Shown here piece after piece: positions 4,106 through 34,185 of a stretch of 44,707 bases of DNA. Numbering within the stretch: the stretch's first letter is position 1; every line of letters starts with the position of its first letter. The notes beneath the pieces are model-generated. The model was given only the letters and a program-made list of their open reading frames with translations, was not told the DNA's origin and ran no database searches. The position numbers were made by a program, and so were the translations under genes. The DNA lies in the sequence record PP786691.1. One strand, 5' to 3'. This DNA is from Escherichia phage phiEco273.

Positions 4106-4290
4106 CAGTCTCAGACGAGGGGGGTGCCAGACCCCCCGTCTAGTCTGAAAGACTGGGGTGCTGTCCCGCTGTCCCGCTCCTCGCCAGGCCGCGTCATCCG
4201 GGGCGGGACAAGGGTGCTGTCCCGCTTTGTCCCGCCCCTGGTCTGTCCCGCTTTTTGTCCCGCTTAGTTTATGCAGTTTTATTGCATAAC
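4106..4290. repeat. Repeat element copy 1: imperfect GC hairpin (GACGAGGGGGG...CCCCCCGTC) followed by 6 direct and 1 inverted copy of GTCCCGC and TTATGCA(G/A)T motifs
   Basis: Direct reading; about 85 percent identical over ~185 bp to 32399-32585 in the same orientation. Confidence 0.8.
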
Positions 4291-14195: not shown

Positions 14196-15620
14196 ATGGC
14201 ACGTTTCCGACGTCGCGAATATCAGAAGTTGATAACCGCGTTCATCCTCAAGCATAAGCGCTGCAATATTTGGGCGACAATGGGGTCGGGTAAAACCGGC
14301 GCGACTATGTGGGCGCTGAATAAAATGTTCCAGACTGGTATCCTGTCCAACCAGGAGGACCGCGTACTGGTGCTGGCCCCGCTGCGCGTTGCGTCCGGTA
14401 CATGGCCCCCGGAGCAGGAGAAATGGCGCTTCCCCGCCCTGCTGGTAGTAGACGGCACCGGGTCAGAGAAGGACCGCATCGCTGCGCTTGAGAGCGACGC
14501 TAACGTGGTTTGTGTTAACTATGATGTGGTTGAGTGGCTGGTTGACTATTGCGGCGACGAGTGGCCCTTTACGGTCGTTGTTGCCGATGAATCCACTAAG
14601 CTGAAAGGCTACCGCAGCAAGCAGGGCAGTAAGCGCGCCCGCGCCCTGGCGGCGATCGCACATAAGCGCGTCAAGCGCTGGATTAACCTTACAGGCACAC
14701 CCGCGCCAAACGGATTGAAAGACCTGTGGGGTCAGACGTGGTTTGTCGACGGTGGCGAACGCCTCGGCAGTAGCTATAAGGCATTTACGGACCGCTGGTT
14801 TATTAGCAAGCCTGTTAAGCCTGGCAGCTTCACGATGCAACACGCCCCGCTCAAGAACTCCGAGAAAGAAATACAACAACGCCTGTCTGACGTATCGCTC
14901 ACCGTTGACGCGGCTGAATACTTCGGATGTGATAAACCAATCTATACGCCGGTTGTTGTGGACCTGCCGAGGAAAGCCCGCAAGATTTATGACCAGTTCG
15001 AAGCGGAGCTATTTGCCGAACTGGAAAGCGGAACGGTGGAGGCGGCGAACGCTGCGTCGAAGACTATTAAGTGCCTTCAGCTTGCTTCCGGGGCCGTGTA
15101 TAAGGTCGACGAAGACGGCGAACGGACCGACGAATGGGTGAAAATTCACGACGCTAAGCTGGACGCGCTGGAAAGTATCGTGGAGGAGTTGAACGGCGCA
15201 CCGTTGCTCGTCGCATACCAGTACAAGCATGACTTGGCACGTCTTAAGAAGAAATTCCCACACGGCGTCGCTATGGGTAAGGGAAAGCAAGGCAATAAGG
15301 ATATGGAAGCGTGGAACAGGGGCGAGATCCCCATCATGTTCGCACACCCGGCATCGGCGGGTCACGGCCTTAACTTGCAGGATGGCGGACACCACCTTGC
15401 TATCTTCTCAGACACCTGGAACTTTGAGCACTTTTCGCAGATCGTGGAGCGTATCGGGCCGGTTCGCCAGATACAAGCCGGACACCCTCGTCCGGTATTC
15501 GTCTACATTATCCAGGCGCGCGGCACACTTGACGAACTGGTCGCCGAGCGTCGCGACAGTAAGCGGGATATTCAGGACGATTTGATGGAATACATGAAAG
15601 CTAAAAAGGCGCGCAAATGA
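14196..15620 (+). CDS. SNF2/DEAD-like superfamily 2 helicase
   Basis: ATG 14196; Walker A GSGKTG, motif II VVADESTKLK, helicase C-terminal domain. Confidence 0.75.
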   Translation: MARFRRREYQKLITAFILKHKRCNIWATMGSGKTGATMWALNKMFQTGILSNQEDRVLVLAPLRVASGTWPPEQEKWRFPALLVVDGTGSEKDRIAALESDANVVCVNYDVVEWLVDYCGDEWPFTVVVADESTKLKGYRSKQGSKRARALAAIAHKRVKRWINLTGTPAPNGLKDLWGQTWFVDGGERLGSSYKAFTDRWFISKPVKPGSFTMQHAPLKNSEKEIQQRLSDVSLTVDAAEYFGCDKPIYTPVVVDLPRKARKIYDQFEAELFAELESGTVEAANAASKTIKCLQLASGAVYKVDEDGERTDEWVKIHDAKLDALESIVEELNGAPLLVAYQYKHDLARLKKKFPHGVAMGKGKQGNKDMEAWNRGEIPIMFAHPASAGHGLNLQDGGHHLAIFSDTWNFEHFSQIVERIGPVRQIQAGHPRPVFVYIIQARGTLDELVAERRDSKRDIQDDLMEYMKAKKARK

Positions 15621-16312
15621 TTATCTGGTCATTATTTGACGGCAGCGGCTTGATGATTGAGCGTGCTGCCGAGATGGGGCATAAGTGTTATTGCTTCAAC
15701 TACTCCGAAGCCGATCATGGGTCTTACCTGGACTACCGGATTTATGGTCGCGGGATCCGCTATCGTAATGAGTTTATCGATCTGGACTTTGTAGACCGCG
15801 CGATGAATGGCGATTTCGGCGCGCCGGATATCATCTACGCATTCCCGCCGTGTACGGATCTGGCGGTGAGCGGTGCGCCAGCTTTCCCGCGCAAGCGTGC
15901 AAAAGACCCAGCCTTTCAGCTTAAGGCGGTGCGCACCGCGAAGATCGCCGCTTACCTGGGTGACTTCTTCGAAGTGCCATATATGATTGAGAATCCGCGC
16001 AGCGTGCTATCAACTCAATGGCGTAAGCCGGACCACTCGTTTGATCCGTGGGAGTATGGCGGATATCTGCCGGAGGATGACGTGCACCCGTTATTCCCGG
16101 AATACATCAACGCCCGCGATTCATATCCGAAGCTGACCTGCTTATGGACCGGCAACGGCTTCCGTATGCCAGAGAAGAAACCTGTTTTCGTTGAAAAAGG
16201 GTACTCGAAGCAGTATAGTCGCCTCGGAGGCAAATCTGCCCGCACCAAATTAATCAGGTCGCTCACCCCGCGCGGCTTCGCGATAGCGGTTAACGAGGAA
16301 AATTTAAAATGA
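15617..16312 (+). CDS. minimal C5-cytosine methyltransferase-like protein
   Basis: 231 aa; motif I-like LFDGSG, motif IV-like FPPCTDLAVSG (catalytic Cys), motif VI-like IENPRS; no obvious target-recognition domain; ATGA coupling with upstream helicase. Confidence 0.45.
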   Translation: MIIWSLFDGSGLMIERAAEMGHKCYCFNYSEADHGSYLDYRIYGRGIRYRNEFIDLDFVDRAMNGDFGAPDIIYAFPPCTDLAVSGAPAFPRKRAKDPAFQLKAVRTAKIAAYLGDFFEVPYMIENPRSVLSTQWRKPDHSFDPWEYGGYLPEDDVHPLFPEYINARDSYPKLTCLWTGNGFRMPEKKPVFVEKGYSKQYSRLGGKSARTKLIRSLTPRGFAIAVNEENLK

Positions 16313-29685: not shown

Positions 29686-32328
29686 TCATCGTTTGTAAAG
29701 TACACCACCTGGTTTAGTCGCTTTCACGATCTCGGACTTCACCGCCTCGGTGATTTGCTTGCCGAACGCCTGCGCGGTACGGGGATCCGGCCCGCTGACA
29801 CTGGTATCCGTTTTACCGGTCCCCGTGTAAACGTTAGTCGTCACGACCATACCACCGCCTGCGCCAGACGCGGCAACGCCCAGTTTCCCGTCCGGCCCGC
29901 GCTTCAGCGGCATGATGGCCTCGGGGCCAGCCTCGCCCATCAATCCTGCGCCCTTAGCGAACGCCTGGACGCCATAACTGAAAAAGGTAGGCTGACTTAC
30001 CACTTTCCCCGAATAGGCCGCGAGATTGCCTCCTGCGTACGCTCCGCCGTCCGCATTCTTAGTTAGGCCAGAGAAGATAGCGCCGAACAATCCGTTTTTG
30101 CCGCCGTCGCCACCGAAAGCGCTAACGATCGACTTGAAAGCCTGCGAGGTAGCCAGCTTGATTAATTCGCTAAGGATGGACTTAACCATATCCTTTGCGT
30201 TCAGCTTGCCAGTCTCGAAAAACTCGTTCATCGTGTCTTGCATAGCGCTGAACGTGAATTTCGTTAGCGTCGCCATCTGCGTATATCCGTTACCCATTTC
30301 ATCCACGCTATCCTTAAGCCCGCGACTGAATCCATCCCATAGCGAGGCGTTAGCGCCGGTCTGCGCCTCCTGCACTTCGCGCAGCTTAGACACCGCCTTG
30401 TCGATATCGGCATCGTTCGCGCCAACCCGCTTCAGGCGGTCAATTAGCTGCAATTCTTCGCGCAGGTTTGCCGCTTCGCGAGTAGAAAGCGCATAACCAG
30501 CGGCGGTAGCTTTTAGTTCGGCGTTCTGGTTCTTAACGAAGGCGTCGATCTGCGCGTGCGCCTTAACCTGCTTCTCTTTCGCATCCAGCAATTTGGCTTC
30601 TTCGACGATCTGCTCGCGGACTTCCTTCACGCGCCCGAACTCGACTAATTGCTGCTTCTCTGCTGCCGTCAGCGCCCTTTCTTTGCTTGCGGCAATTAAC
30701 TGCTCATTGTCGGCGATCAGCTTGTTTAAGGCCGCTTGAGCGCGTTGAGTGCGGGTCTGTGTAGATGCGTTGGCTTCGATCTGCTTGCCGGATTCTCGAA
30801 GCTGGGCCAGTTCACTCCGTGCTACTTCCAGCATTTTCATACCGGCGTCCACGCGAACAGCCGCGGCCTTCTTCGGGGCGGGGTCTTTGTAGCGCTCGTT
30901 GACCTGCTTAACCGCCTCGGCTAGTTCTTTCTCATCAATAACGCCGCGCTTATTCAGCAAATTGAGGCGGGCGATCTCGTCGGCGCGCTTCTTAGCGTTG
31001 GTGGCGTATTCCTTCTCGAACGCGGCGCGGTCACGGGCAGTGCGGTTGGCCTCCTCGTTCGCCTTTGCGGATTCGTCTGCGGCGCGGGCGTTGTCTCGCT
31101 CCGCACGGTTACGCAGGGTGAGCGACGCCACCACTTTTTCCTGGGCGACCAGTTCGCTGTAAAGCATGTTAATACGTGCTTTCTGCGCTTCAGTCATTAC
31201 CCCACCGGCAGCGTTTACCGCTTTCATCTCGGCATAATAAGCCGTGGTCATGCGCTGCAATGACTCACGCGCTTTCATCTCTGACTCATTCGAGGACTGC
31301 GCACGTCCAACATCCAGGATGGCATCCCACATAGATTTAGCTGCCGATGTGACGGTGTTCATCGACCGCTCAAGCGTACCCATGTTGGACTTGATTTCAT
31401 TGGTCATGCTGGTGAACGACGCAGCGGCTGTTTTGTTAGCCAACGCAACTGCGTCTGTCTCACGACCCGCATCAACGAGCGACTGTACCTGCTGGATCTG
31501 CGCTTCGTTTACGACGTGATACTTATCCGCCAGCGCACGCAGTCCGCCTACCGGGTCGGTAGACAGCTTAGCCACCGCCGCGACTACATCCTCGATCGGC
31601 TGGCTGGACACCTTCGCGAAGTCATTCACTACCTTAGCCAATGCGCCGAAGTCACCACCCGCTTTCACACCAGCCGCCGCCAGCGCCTGGATTGTGTCAC
31701 GCGTCTTGCGGAATGATCCGCCCATGCGCTCGGCGTTCTCGGATAGCACCAGGATCTGGTTAGCTGTGAGGCCGGAGATATTGCCGGACAGCGCCAGCGT
31801 CTTATTAAGCGCGGCTACCTGGTTCTCTGCCCGTGACGTAATTGCCACGCCCACGCCTAACGTCGCCGTTACGGCAGCAAGTCCGATCCCTACTGGGCCG
31901 AGGAAGCCCGCAACATAACGCAGCGTGTTACCCAGTCCGCCAAATGCGCCGGTTAGCTGTGGTAGCTGCTGAAGCATGACGCGGTGCACCGGCATACCCA
32001 TCTCAAGCGTAACCGCGATATCCTGTAACTGGAATGCCGCGTTCCGCGATGCGAATCCCAGGTTTTTGGTTGACATGCCTAGTCGGCTGGCGAGTCGCTC
32101 TTGTTTCGTCATGCCGTCGGCGGCACGCTGAGATTCAGTCGCTAACTTTTCCATTCCGCCAGCGGCGTCACCCGTGACCTTTTTCGACTTGCCGAGGGTG
32201 TCGTTTAATTTTTTGACTTTCTGTTCTGTGTTCTCGGATTTCTGCGCAAATGTGTCCAGCACAGTATTAGCCGTTTTAATTTGCGCGACGTCCGCCTTGA
32301 GCGTGATGCCCGCTGCCTGATCTGCCAT
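29686..32328 (-). CDS. tail tape measure protein
   Basis: ORF 29686..32367; probable start ATG 32328 with AAGGGGGG RBS; long Ala/Lys/Glu-rich coiled-coil protein in canonical position. Confidence 0.75.
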   Translation of the reverse strand: MADQAAGITLKADVAQIKTANTVLDTFAQKSENTEQKVKKLNDTLGKSKKVTGDAAGGMEKLATESQRAADGMTKQERLASRLGMSTKNLGFASRNAAFQLQDIAVTLEMGMPVHRVMLQQLPQLTGAFGGLGNTLRYVAGFLGPVGIGLAAVTATLGVGVAITSRAENQVAALNKTLALSGNISGLTANQILVLSENAERMGGSFRKTRDTIQALAAAGVKAGGDFGALAKVVNDFAKVSSQPIEDVVAAVAKLSTDPVGGLRALADKYHVVNEAQIQQVQSLVDAGRETDAVALANKTAAASFTSMTNEIKSNMGTLERSMNTVTSAAKSMWDAILDVGRAQSSNESEMKARESLQRMTTAYYAEMKAVNAAGGVMTEAQKARINMLYSELVAQEKVVASLTLRNRAERDNARAADESAKANEEANRTARDRAAFEKEYATNAKKRADEIARLNLLNKRGVIDEKELAEAVKQVNERYKDPAPKKAAAVRVDAGMKMLEVARSELAQLRESGKQIEANASTQTRTQRAQAALNKLIADNEQLIAASKERALTAAEKQQLVEFGRVKEVREQIVEEAKLLDAKEKQVKAHAQIDAFVKNQNAELKATAAGYALSTREAANLREELQLIDRLKRVGANDADIDKAVSKLREVQEAQTGANASLWDGFSRGLKDSVDEMGNGYTQMATLTKFTFSAMQDTMNEFFETGKLNAKDMVKSILSELIKLATSQAFKSIVSAFGGDGGKNGLFGAIFSGLTKNADGGAYAGGNLAAYSGKVVSQPTFFSYGVQAFAKGAGLMGEAGPEAIMPLKRGPDGKLGVAASGAGGGMVVTTNVYTGTGKTDTSVSGPDPRTAQAFGKQITEAVKSEIVKATKPGGVLYKR

Positions 32329-32398
32329 TATGCAGTCCCCCCTTTTTATGCAGTTGCCGTCGGTCATTGTATCAGCGAATTTAAAACAAACCTTATTC

Positions 32399-32712
32399 AG
32401 TCTCAGACGAGGGGGGCCATTGACCCCCGTCTAGTCTGAAAGACTGGGCTTTGTCCCGCCTGTCCCGATCGGCTAAAACCCGCGGCAGCACTGGCGGGGA
32501 CAGGGGTGCTGTCCCGCTTTGTCCCGCCTCATTCTGTCCCGCTTTTTGTCCCGCTTACTTTATGCAATAAAACTGAATAGACATTCACATTTTGGGGGCG
32601 GGACAGATCGGGACAGCACCCCTGTCCCGCTTTTAATTTATGCAATTGTGGTGAGTAAATATGCAGTTTTAGAGGTGCGGGACAAAACGGGACGTCCCGC
32701 CTGTCCCGCTCC
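32399..32712. repeat. Repeat element copy 2 (GC hairpin + GTCCCGC array, extended by additional direct/inverted heptamers and TTATGCA motifs) filling the GT-chaperone / tape-measure intergenic gap
   Basis: Direct reading; ~15 heptamer copies; first ~185 bp about 85 percent identical to 4106-4290. Confidence 0.8.
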
Positions 32713-32713
32713 G

Positions 32714-33037
32714 TTATGCGGGGTTCTGCCGCGCCATTTCATCCAGCGCAACGCGTTCCATTAGCTTGATATCTTTAAACGCACGTTGCGCGTTTTCGAT
32801 GCCGTGCATATTAAATAACCATTCCAGTACGCCGTAGTCGATGCCGTATGCGCCACCGAATCCGGTACGCCATTGCGTGGCGCAATCCGTGAAGACTGCG
32901 ACTACCTTCGCATTGTCGGGCCATAGTGCAACCGGCGGGCAAACATCTTCGGGGGCCGCACCCCATAAACTTGCGGCTAAATCTTCGGAGGGTGGCGGCG
33001 GGCCATAAAAGCGTCGCGCCGCCTCAATTAGTTTTTT
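32714..33037 (-). CDS. tail assembly chaperone -1 frameshift extension (GT-type fusion product)
   Basis: Slippery heptamer A_AAA_AAC (33037-33031) immediately before the G-like stop; the -1 frame stays open for ~105 codons to TAA at 32716-32714 with no internal start signal. Confidence 0.6.
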   Translation of the reverse strand, partial: KKLIEAARRFYGPPPPSEDLAASLWGAAPEDVCPPVALWPDNAKVVAVFTDCATQWRTGFGGAYGIDYGVLEWLFNMHGIENAQRAFKDIKLMERVALDEMARQNPA

Positions 33038-33390
33038 TCACGCAGCCCCATCAGTTCGAGATAGTACGACGTGTGGAACACGCCGAACGCGCGCGGGTAG
33101 TTGACCACCAGGCGGCGGACGTTCTCCGCGTTAAATTCGTCCGGCAGATTCCAGCCTTCAGCGACGTGCATTATGGCCTCGACCATAACGTTAAAGCCGT
33201 CAGGGTCATTGTCGTCATACTCCGACAACTTGCGCTCAGTATCCTGCATGGTCTGCGAAAATTCGTCGATCGGGCGGTGGCGCACGGTAAACGTCATTTT
33301 CCCCGGTTCGTTTTCACCGGGGCGCGGGATCTCAATCGGCAGCTTAAAGGTCGGCTTAGGGTCAAGTGTGAAGAGTGGTGCTTTTGCCAT
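33028..33390 (-). CDS. tail assembly chaperone (lambda G-like)
   Basis: ATG 33390 with GGAGA RBS; acidic ~120-aa protein between major tail and tape measure genes. Confidence 0.6.
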   Translation of the reverse strand: MAKAPLFTLDPKPTFKLPIEIPRPGENEPGKMTFTVRHRPIDEFSQTMQDTERKLSEYDDNDPDGFNVMVEAIMHVAEGWNLPDEFNAENVRRLVVNYPRAFGVFHTSYYLELMGLREKN

Positions 33391-33405: not shown

Positions 33406-33430
33406 TAAAAAAGGGGCCGTACTGGCCCCA
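33406..33430 (-). terminator. intrinsic terminator after major tail protein gene (GGGGCCAGTACGGCCCC + TTTTTT on minus strand)
   Basis: Strong hairpin followed by T6 on the coding strand. Confidence 0.65.
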
Positions 33431-33459: not shown

Positions 33460-34185
33460 TTACGACAGCGCTTCAACCAGGTCCTTACGGTAAATAACCA
33501 TATCGGATTGCATGGTCAGAGTGGACTCCACCGTCTCCACGTTGTTTACTTCAGCCGATGGAATCTTCTGGAAAGACACCTTAGCCGGGTAAATGCGGAT
33601 CTCACCTTTGCCGCTTGCCGCTGCCGGGTTGGTGAACTTAATCACAGTGGTTTTCTGTGTGTCGTCCAGGTCTTCCAGAATCGGGCGGATCGGGTCTTCT
33701 TCGTCGTGGGTGAAAGTGTAGGTCTGGACCAACGGGTTTTTCGTGGTGTTCAGACTGATCGCGGTATTCACCTGCAACGGCTGGAAGGTGGTGGTCTGCT
33801 GGTCGCCACCCGACACGGCAACGTTAGTGATATACGGGAAGTCGATAAAATTCGACACTTTCACCACTTCGCCTGGGGTTCCCGCCCCAAAAGCACCGGC
33901 AGGATATTTGGTGACGTCTTGAGTATCGAAGCGCGCCAGTGTAACGTCGTTAGTCGCCACTTTACCCACGATGAACGCGCGGTTCAGCGCACGGACCCAC
34001 GGGGCTTTAGTGAACATAACCACGTCGCCAACTTTCAAGCCATGAGAAGCCGCGCAGGTGATAACGCACCCTTTCGTAAGATCAGAGATCGACGCGGCGG
34101 CGTTGGTAGCTGCCGTAACAGCGATACCGTTGCCCAGTACGGACCCAATCTGGACGCTAGACCCGTTAGGAAGTTGATAACCCAT
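33460..34185 (-). CDS. major tail protein
   Basis: 241 aa; AGGAG RBS; followed by strong terminator and chaperone/tape measure genes. Confidence 0.65.
   Translation of the reverse strand: MGYQLPNGSSVQIGSVLGNGIAVTAATNAAASISDLTKGCVITCAASHGLKVGDVVMFTKAPWVRALNRAFIVGKVATNDVTLARFDTQDVTKYPAGAFGAGTPGEVVKVSNFIDFPYITNVAVSGGDQQTTTFQPLQVNTAISLNTTKNPLVQTYTFTHDEEDPIRPILEDLDDTQKTTVIKFTNPAAASGKGEIRIYPAKVSFQKIPSAEVNNVETVESTLTMQSDMVIYRKDLVEALS

Follow-up and report, generated by a model that had tools for sequence, protein, structure and literature searches.

Does the tail assembly chaperone gene of Escherichia phage phiEco273 yield only the protein that ends at its stop codon, or do some ribosomes change frame just before that codon and add a second domain to the product? 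The question is raised by the 3' end of a 120-codon ORF, where a heptamer of the X_XXY_YYZ type precedes the stop codon and a second reading frame lies open beyond it. The DNA analysed, called the window here at its full length of 44,707 nucleotides (PP786691.1), is that of a Dhillonvirus-like coliphage, being 93-97% identical to coliphages of this genus (Psq-1, SSL-2009a, HK578, JL1) and matched by 158 records. A frameshift in the G/GT tail chaperone genes of phage lambda was reportedly described by Levin, Hendrix and Casjens in 1993 and by Xu, Hendrix and Duda in 2004, 2013 and 2014. The evidence assembled below makes it very probable that the tail chaperone pair in the window uses a programmed -1 ribosomal frameshift of the lambda G/GT type.

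Two reading frames between the tail tube and tape-measure genes

The genes around the putative slip site lie on the minus strand throughout, in the order major tail tube gene, chaperone gene (G), its -1 extension (T) and tape-measure gene (Table 1). The G ORF begins with an ATG at 33390 that has GGAG 9 nt to its 5' side, and the records of relatives annotate a G CDS of the same length. When the window was aligned without gaps to 16 close relatives, G gave a pN/pS of 0.03 in its own frame. The first-pass annotation, made from the letters of the window, had called this a tail assembly chaperone gene, an assignment now supported by a full-length match of the G protein to the Pfam family Phage_TAC_4 (PF08748, residues 1-120, E=1.4e-23), by a match to phrog_569 (E=1e-40) and by the place of the gene between those for the tube and the tape measure. 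A sequence search of solved structures with the chaperone gave no match, and a single-sequence AlphaFold2 model of the fused GT product (pLDDT 40) was unusable.

The 3' end of the G ORF reads CTG CGT GAA AAA AAC TAA on the minus strand, and the A_AAA_AAC heptamer that it contains sits within a run of seven A residues (33038-33032). Since the heptamer is flanked by a TGA in the -1 frame and by the TAA that ends G, the productive overlap of the two frames is exactly 7 nt, and the heptamer is the only possible productive shift site between these two stops. The +1 frame is closed after 8 codons at this place. Translated from 33037, T starts with KKLIEAARRFYGPPPP (KKLIEAARRFYGPPPPSEDL) and ends with MARQNPA, which gives a predicted GT fusion of 225 aa. 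Each of the structural claims that had been made for this locus agrees with the translation: G does end in GAA AAA AAC TAA, with A_AAA_AAC at 33037-33031 just before the stop; the -1 frame, said to be open for about 105 codons to 32714, spans 107 codons from 33037, or 105 past the slip codons; a -1 stop close to the slip site, the feature that the first-pass annotation had set against its own proposal, is absent, the first such stop being that at 32716-32714; and the frame, said to lack a start codon and ribosome binding site of its own, has its first ATG, GTG or TTG only at codon 76 of 107.

Table 1. Coordinates of the features of the chaperone locus in the window
Feature	Coordinates	Strand	Remarks
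Major tail tube gene	33460..34185	minus	Upstream neighbour of G; Pfam Phage_tail_3 E=4e-33; phrog_584 E=1e-74
G-like tail assembly chaperone ORF	33390-33028	minus	120 codons and TAA; 363-nt CDS
GGGG, candidate SD-like stimulator	33046..33049	minus	8 nt 5' of the heptamer, positions -12 to -9
-1 frame TGA	33038..33040	minus	Directly 5' of the heptamer; closes the -1 frame there
Slippery heptamer A_AAA_AAC	33031..33037	minus	X_XXY_YYZ in the phase of the G frame; last two G codons
Last codons of G	GAA 33039-33037, AAA 33036-33034, AAC 33033-31, TAA 33030-33028	minus	
0-frame stop TAA	33028..33030	minus	Directly 3' of the heptamer; ends G
Candidate hairpin GGCGGCG-N16-CGCCGCC	32994..33023	minus	Starts 7 nt past the heptamer; predicted, -17 kcal/mol locally
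T extension, -1 frame	32714..33037	minus	107 codons and TAA 32716-32714
DUF1799 domain	32735..32965	minus	T residues 25-101; Pfam PF08809 E=6.4e-21
Tape-measure gene	29686..32367	minus	893 aa; downstream neighbour; Pfam TMP_2 E=3e-43, Tape_meas_lam_C E=7e-14; phrog_24 E=1e-184

Between the tube and chaperone genes, at 33413-33429 on the minus strand, lies a terminator-like hairpin (GGGGCCAGTACGGCCCC) followed by TTTTTT, and the T1 record carries an annotated terminator at the equivalent place in the gap between tube and chaperone. Such a hairpin could lower the transcription of the chaperone and tape-measure genes relative to that of the tube protein.

The heptamer, the open frame and chance

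Taken by itself the heptamer is uninformative, its count being at chance level, and simple statistics on ORF length and heptamer counts are uninformative as well. The window has two copies of AAAAAAC where 3.4 would be expected, ORFs of at least 100 aa in the window contain 43 in-phase X_XXY_YYZ heptamers, and 15 of the 95 ORF ends in the window are followed by a -1 frame that stays open for at least 107 codons. Long -1 frames after stop codons are common because they are mostly ordinary gene overlaps in which the second gene has its own start. What goes beyond chance at this locus is a combination, namely a heptamer placed exactly on the two final codons of a chaperone gene, the lack of a start codon in T, homology that runs from the slip site, and conservation.

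The same heptamer scan flagged two other places in the window. On the minus strand, an ORF at 7848-7441 contains several T6 heptamers, with long -1 extensions. On the plus strand, an ORF at 15617-16312 has AAATTTA/TTTAAAA near its stop and is followed by a -1 frame ORF listed from 16309, a pair that, at 16312/16309, looks like an ordinary gene overlap.

Chance-level heptamer counts and the frequency of long -1 frames after ORF ends would be compatible with a T frame that is open by accident, or with a decaying remnant that is not expressed, but the substitutions in this region say otherwise. Among the same 16 close relatives, reading T in the -1 frame gives a pN/pS of 0.08, and the two alternative frames give 1.7 and 3.8. 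Counted by -1 codon position (1/2/3), the variable sites number 20/7/67, a strong third-position bias seen in this frame only. The -1 frame is thus real coding sequence under strong purifying selection. In addition, T matches DUF1799 and has a core that is found in 1136 phage records and that lies downstream of G in the -1 relation in every lineage inspected. An accidental frame or remnant is refuted by these tests of selection and homology, and we put its likelihood at practically nil.

DUF1799 as the probable second half of the chaperone

Pfam still labels DUF1799 as a domain of unknown function. The T product matches phrog_680 (E=3e-30) besides the Pfam domain, and a further profile, phrog_17368, spans both halves of the predicted fusion, with G aligned to profile positions 1-107 and T to positions 147-212. 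The match of this single profile to both G and T indicates that fused members exist in the PHROG library. When 1.84 billion representative proteins were searched, the matches covered either G only (ending at query residue 120) or T only, plus one fusion. DUF1799 is read here as the T domain of the Phage_TAC_4 chaperone family.

The one fusion found in that search is a 206-aa protein (P0011) in which homologues of G and T are joined in one frame. Its junction reads VVDVYL-LRAAVRAIY and is devoid of the usual R-x-K-N / KKL segment; the protein could be a natural fusion or the result of a deletion in a prophage.

Initiation in the T frame

If T were a separate gene, its translation would have to begin by re-initiation or coupling at the ATT at 33028-33026, which overlaps the G stop (TAATT). 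A public record is written in just this way: in HK578 (JQ086375), the CDS HK578_016 is annotated from the last base of the G stop as a 104-aa protein that begins MEAARR. DUF1799 proteins are often called as ORFs of their own by gene callers, as in one published description (PMC9658991). Against such annotations stands the fact that ATT is a very poor initiator, and the sole SD-like element before it lies about 20 nt upstream, which is too far for initiation. Across 37 non-redundant lineages, the codon equivalent to ATT is ATC in 17, ATT in 10, ATA in five, AAA in three, and ACG and AAG in one each, and is ATG, GTG or TTG in none. The first possible start in the T frame of these lineages lies at inconsistent positions, at a median of 30 codons past the slip site. 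Protein homology of T, in turn, begins at the slip site itself (KKLIEAAR / KKLKRAVYL), that is, two codons before the ATT, at the KK encoded within the heptamer. Across lineages it is the slippery motif that is conserved and not a start codon. A variable codon at the ATT position and conservation that starts upstream of it make re-initiation unlikely, and we regard it as an extremely improbable source of the T product.

Conservation of the shift motif across phages

The heptamer is unchanged across 18 distinct Dhillonvirus sequences. When viral contigs were first scanned with the T peptide, 78 loci came up whose T relatives have 28-97% identity, and nearly all of them had a G-like ORF that ends in AAAAAAC followed by TGA or TAA, and a T in the -1 frame. 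Because the KKLIEAAR seed of that scan extends into the slip site, the set is biased; it overstates A6C and was not used for motif frequencies. The searches were therefore repeated with queries free of the slip site: tblastn with T residues 21-107 matched 1136 phage records, in groups that include Dhillonvirus, T1-like Drexlerviridae, Klebsiella Webervirus, and Ralstonia and Pseudomonas phages, and tblastn with G residues 1-105 matched 926 records from the same phage groups.

Seventeen diverse lineages from these searches were inspected, 13 of them found through the T core and four through the N-terminal part of G, neither query covering the slip site. Every one of the 17 has T downstream of G in the -1 frame and carries a shift-prone motif within the last one to three G codons. 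The motif is A_AAA_AAC in nine lineages (T1, SH2, LL5, IME253, SRT8, Motto, ESP2949-1, phiES15, tunzivis), an A_AAG tetramer in five (Rogue1, vB_Kp3, HSE3, ATCEA23, Koroua), G_GGA_AAC in two (Pseudomonas phiAH14a, Ralstonia YO089_1) and A_AAA in one (SegesCirculi). The earlier suggestion that a G/GT arrangement is conserved here, made from one genome, consequently holds in every one of these lineages, retrieved independently of the slip site, with both the -1 position of T and the shift motif at the end of G.

The variety of these motifs also bears on whether the change of frame could take place during transcription. RNA polymerase might stutter on the seven consecutive A residues at 33038-33032 and insert one more, after which some mRNAs would encode GT in a single frame; a single inserted A would yield precisely the -1 product (REKKLIE). 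For slippage by bacterial RNA polymerase to be productive, a run of about nine residues or more is generally required. The run in the window falls below that length and many relatives have only A6, and at homologous sites the sequence is G_GGA_AAC or CAA_AAG / GCA_AAG, the latter with runs of three to four A residues that cannot stutter. These variants are classical ribosomal shift motifs without a long homopolymer, which argues against transcriptional slippage as the mechanism of the family. Some bacterial and IS genes do use slippage of this kind (PMC5009743), but for this locus we consider it very unlikely.

Proposed mechanism

With a ribosomal -1 frameshift as the preferred reading, we infer the following course of events. 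Most ribosomes on the chaperone gene (33390-33031) would stop at the TAA at 33030-33028 and release the 120-aa G protein, and a minority would slip back by one base on A_AAA_AAC (33037-31). In this slip the peptidyl-tRNA-Lys would re-pair from AAA to AAA; in the A site, tRNA-Asn would re-pair from AAC to AAA, or else the P-site tRNA may slip alone while the A site waits. Shifted ribosomes would then continue with CTA ATT GAG and on through 105 more codons to produce the 225-aa GT protein, whose C-terminal half is DUF1799. By analogy with lambda, the G part that both products share would coat the 893-aa tape-measure protein, the rare T part would recruit the tail tube protein, and a fixed ratio of G to GT would serve tail assembly.

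The heptamer has been proven to act as a -1 site in E. coli, in IS1 (PMC4066793), and it has also been proposed as the g-t frameshift site of an archaeal tailed virus (PMC5009743). It is far less shift-prone in E. coli than A_AAA_AAG (PMC5009743). Since A_AAA_AAC is weak in this host, the efficiency of the shift is probably a few percent or less. A weak motif fits a chaperone that needs just a small GT fraction; in lambda, the ratio of G to GT is about 30:1 (PMC5009743).

Candidate stimulators of the shift

Several elements around the heptamer may raise the frequency of slippage. On the 5' side, the GGGG of Table 1 belongs to a purine run that is kept at positions -12 to -8 across 37 lineages. 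In these lineages, 8-mers whose first base is at -15 to -11 pair with the anti-SD sequence at a mean duplex energy of about -4 kcal/mol, where the background elsewhere in G is -0.76 +/- 0.67 kcal/mol. Part of this signal coincides with a Gly/Glu/Lys codon. The encoded residues vary by lineage (Gly, Glu-Ala, Lys-Ala) while the purines persist. This pattern suggests that the GGGG may act as an SD-like stimulator of frameshifting, at a spacing of about 8 nt that is shorter than the dnaX optimum. A second and stronger SD-like match is the GAGG at 33025-33022 (+12 to +15 from the start of the heptamer), which derives from the Glu-Ala codons of KKLIEAAR; it is conserved just past the G stop in most lineages, and the T frame has no start codon after it.

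On the 3' side, the stop codon of G is overlapped by a codon of the T frame. The Leu codon at this position is CTG in 22 of the 37 lineages, CTA in 11, CTC in four and CTT in none, and the lineages with CTC carry a TAG one codon later. By this choice of Leu codon, the 0-frame stop falls zero or one codon past the heptamer in all 37. Such an adjacent stop is compatible with stimulation of the kind termed a 'shifty stop', an effect attributed to Weiss et al. 1987 (cited in PMC5009743).

The candidate hairpin downstream of the heptamer was weighed by several controls. Synonymous sites are nearly frozen from -5 to +43 among the 18 distinct Dhillonvirus sequences (scan permutation p=0.005), a stretch that includes the hairpin. 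The predicted stability of the hairpin is not exceptional: compared with dinucleotide shuffles of 81 nt, z was only -0.9, and compared with synonymous recodings of the same peptide it was no more stable (p=0.25). The corresponding hairpin of T1 did differ from its synonymous recodings (p=0.0065). A codon-shuffle control over the 37 lineages gave no family-wide excess of pairing downstream (p=0.77), and an Rfam search returned nothing above threshold, its only matches being weak, miRNA-like chance hits on the repeat region described below. On the shuffle score, the recoding test and the family-wide control, the hairpin was rejected as an established stimulator; it is retained as a candidate because the synonymous sites there are frozen.

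A broader reading of these features can be put forward tentatively, although we lean against it. It holds that the Phage_TAC_4/DUF1799 family carries a rigid recoding cassette that includes an SD-like run about 8 nt 5' of the heptamer and a stop zero or one codon past it, and that a very low G:GT would be set by the 'shifty stop' and not by RNA structure. The position of the stop may then be kept even at the cost of rare Leu and Ile codons.

Comparison with known frameshift systems

The slip site of lambda is G_GGA_AAG. The window resembles lambda in that genes for the major tail protein and the tape measure flank two overlapping ORFs, that the second is in the -1 frame without a start of its own, that a canonical heptamer stands near the end of G, and that a minor GT fusion would be the expected outcome. 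It differs from lambda in its heptamer, A_AAA_AAC; in an overlap of merely 7 nt, with the 0-frame stop directly after the heptamer; and in its protein families, which are Phage_TAC_4 for G and DUF1799 for T. The lambda system is summarised in PMC5009743.

A close parallel is Escherichia phage LL5 (Tlsvirus, Drexlerviridae), whose GenBank record MH491968 annotates the homologous pair as a joined frameshift CDS. LL5 and the window share homologous G and T proteins and their -1 relation, and in both of them G ends on A_AAA_AAC in its final two codons, with TAA as the stop. LL5 nevertheless belongs to another genus and family, its T core is about 41% identical to that of the window, and its T N-terminus is KKLKRAVYL in place of KKLIEAARR. 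The downstream hairpin of LL5 and T1-like phages (GGCGGTTT/AAACCGCC) differs in sequence from the candidate in the window and has the same spacing.

Among E. coli systems, dnaX shifts on A_AAA_AAG with an efficiency of about 50% and has proven strong stimulators. The window is like dnaX in its proposed -1 shift on an A-rich heptamer, accompanied by a possible SD-like element and a possible hairpin, and unlike it in that the GGGG is just 8 nt upstream and the hairpin lacks statistical support. With insA-insB' of IS1 the window shares the A_AAA_AAC heptamer, E. coli ribosomes and, as expected here, a fusion of low abundance. The IS1 product, in contrast, is a transposase, a protein unrelated to the phage chaperones. 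In IS1 the fusion is of low abundance and its stimulator has not been established (PMC4066793).

Repeat arrays beside the locus

The 8-mer GCGGGACA occurs 18 times in the window, where 2.2 copies are expected, and its copies form two dense arrays, at 32452-32709 and at 4162-4263. The former fills the 347-nt non-coding gap from the T stop to the start of the tape-measure gene. Several copies form inverted pairs (GCGGGAC...GTCCCGC), and both arrays are flanked by the same hairpin module of about 50 nt (CAGTCTCAGACGAGGGGGG...CCCCCCGTCTAGTCTGA) and by an element like TTATTGCATAA. The array between T and the tape-measure gene is kept in Dhillonvirus relatives and absent in distant relatives, in which about 40 nt separate T from the tape-measure gene. 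From its sequence the array looks like a repeated regulatory or protein-binding module.

Annotation in public records and significance

The annotation of the T ORF is at odds with a frameshift in all five Dhillonvirus-genus records whose feature tables were read, none of which has a joined frameshift CDS, and among the product names listed for the remaining genus records (158 related records) none indicates a frameshift product. For HK578, which is the genus type phage, the record (JQ086375) places the T ORF at 663-977, the equivalent of 33028-32714 in the window, with ATT as its start; other records of the genus have T as an internal fragment of 31-42 aa or have nothing. T is split, truncated or omitted in T1 RefSeq, SSL-2009a, Pandora71, HK578 and JLBYU37. 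A published phage description similarly places a stand-alone 'DUF1799 domain-containing phage protein' beside the chaperone (PMC9658991).

Recognition of the frameshift would give the correct 225-aa GT product, and the main value of the finding lies in annotation. What is known of the mechanism is unchanged by it, frameshifting of the lambda G/GT type being already well known. The frameshift reading gives DUF1799 a role in about 1100 phage genomes, and if the more tentative reading of the surrounding elements as a rigid cassette were true, DUF1799 would simply be the T domain in over 1000 sequenced phages. The family would also lend itself to studies of how low frameshift efficiencies are set in E. 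coli, as its members form a natural collection of weak -1 motifs next to a stop codon.
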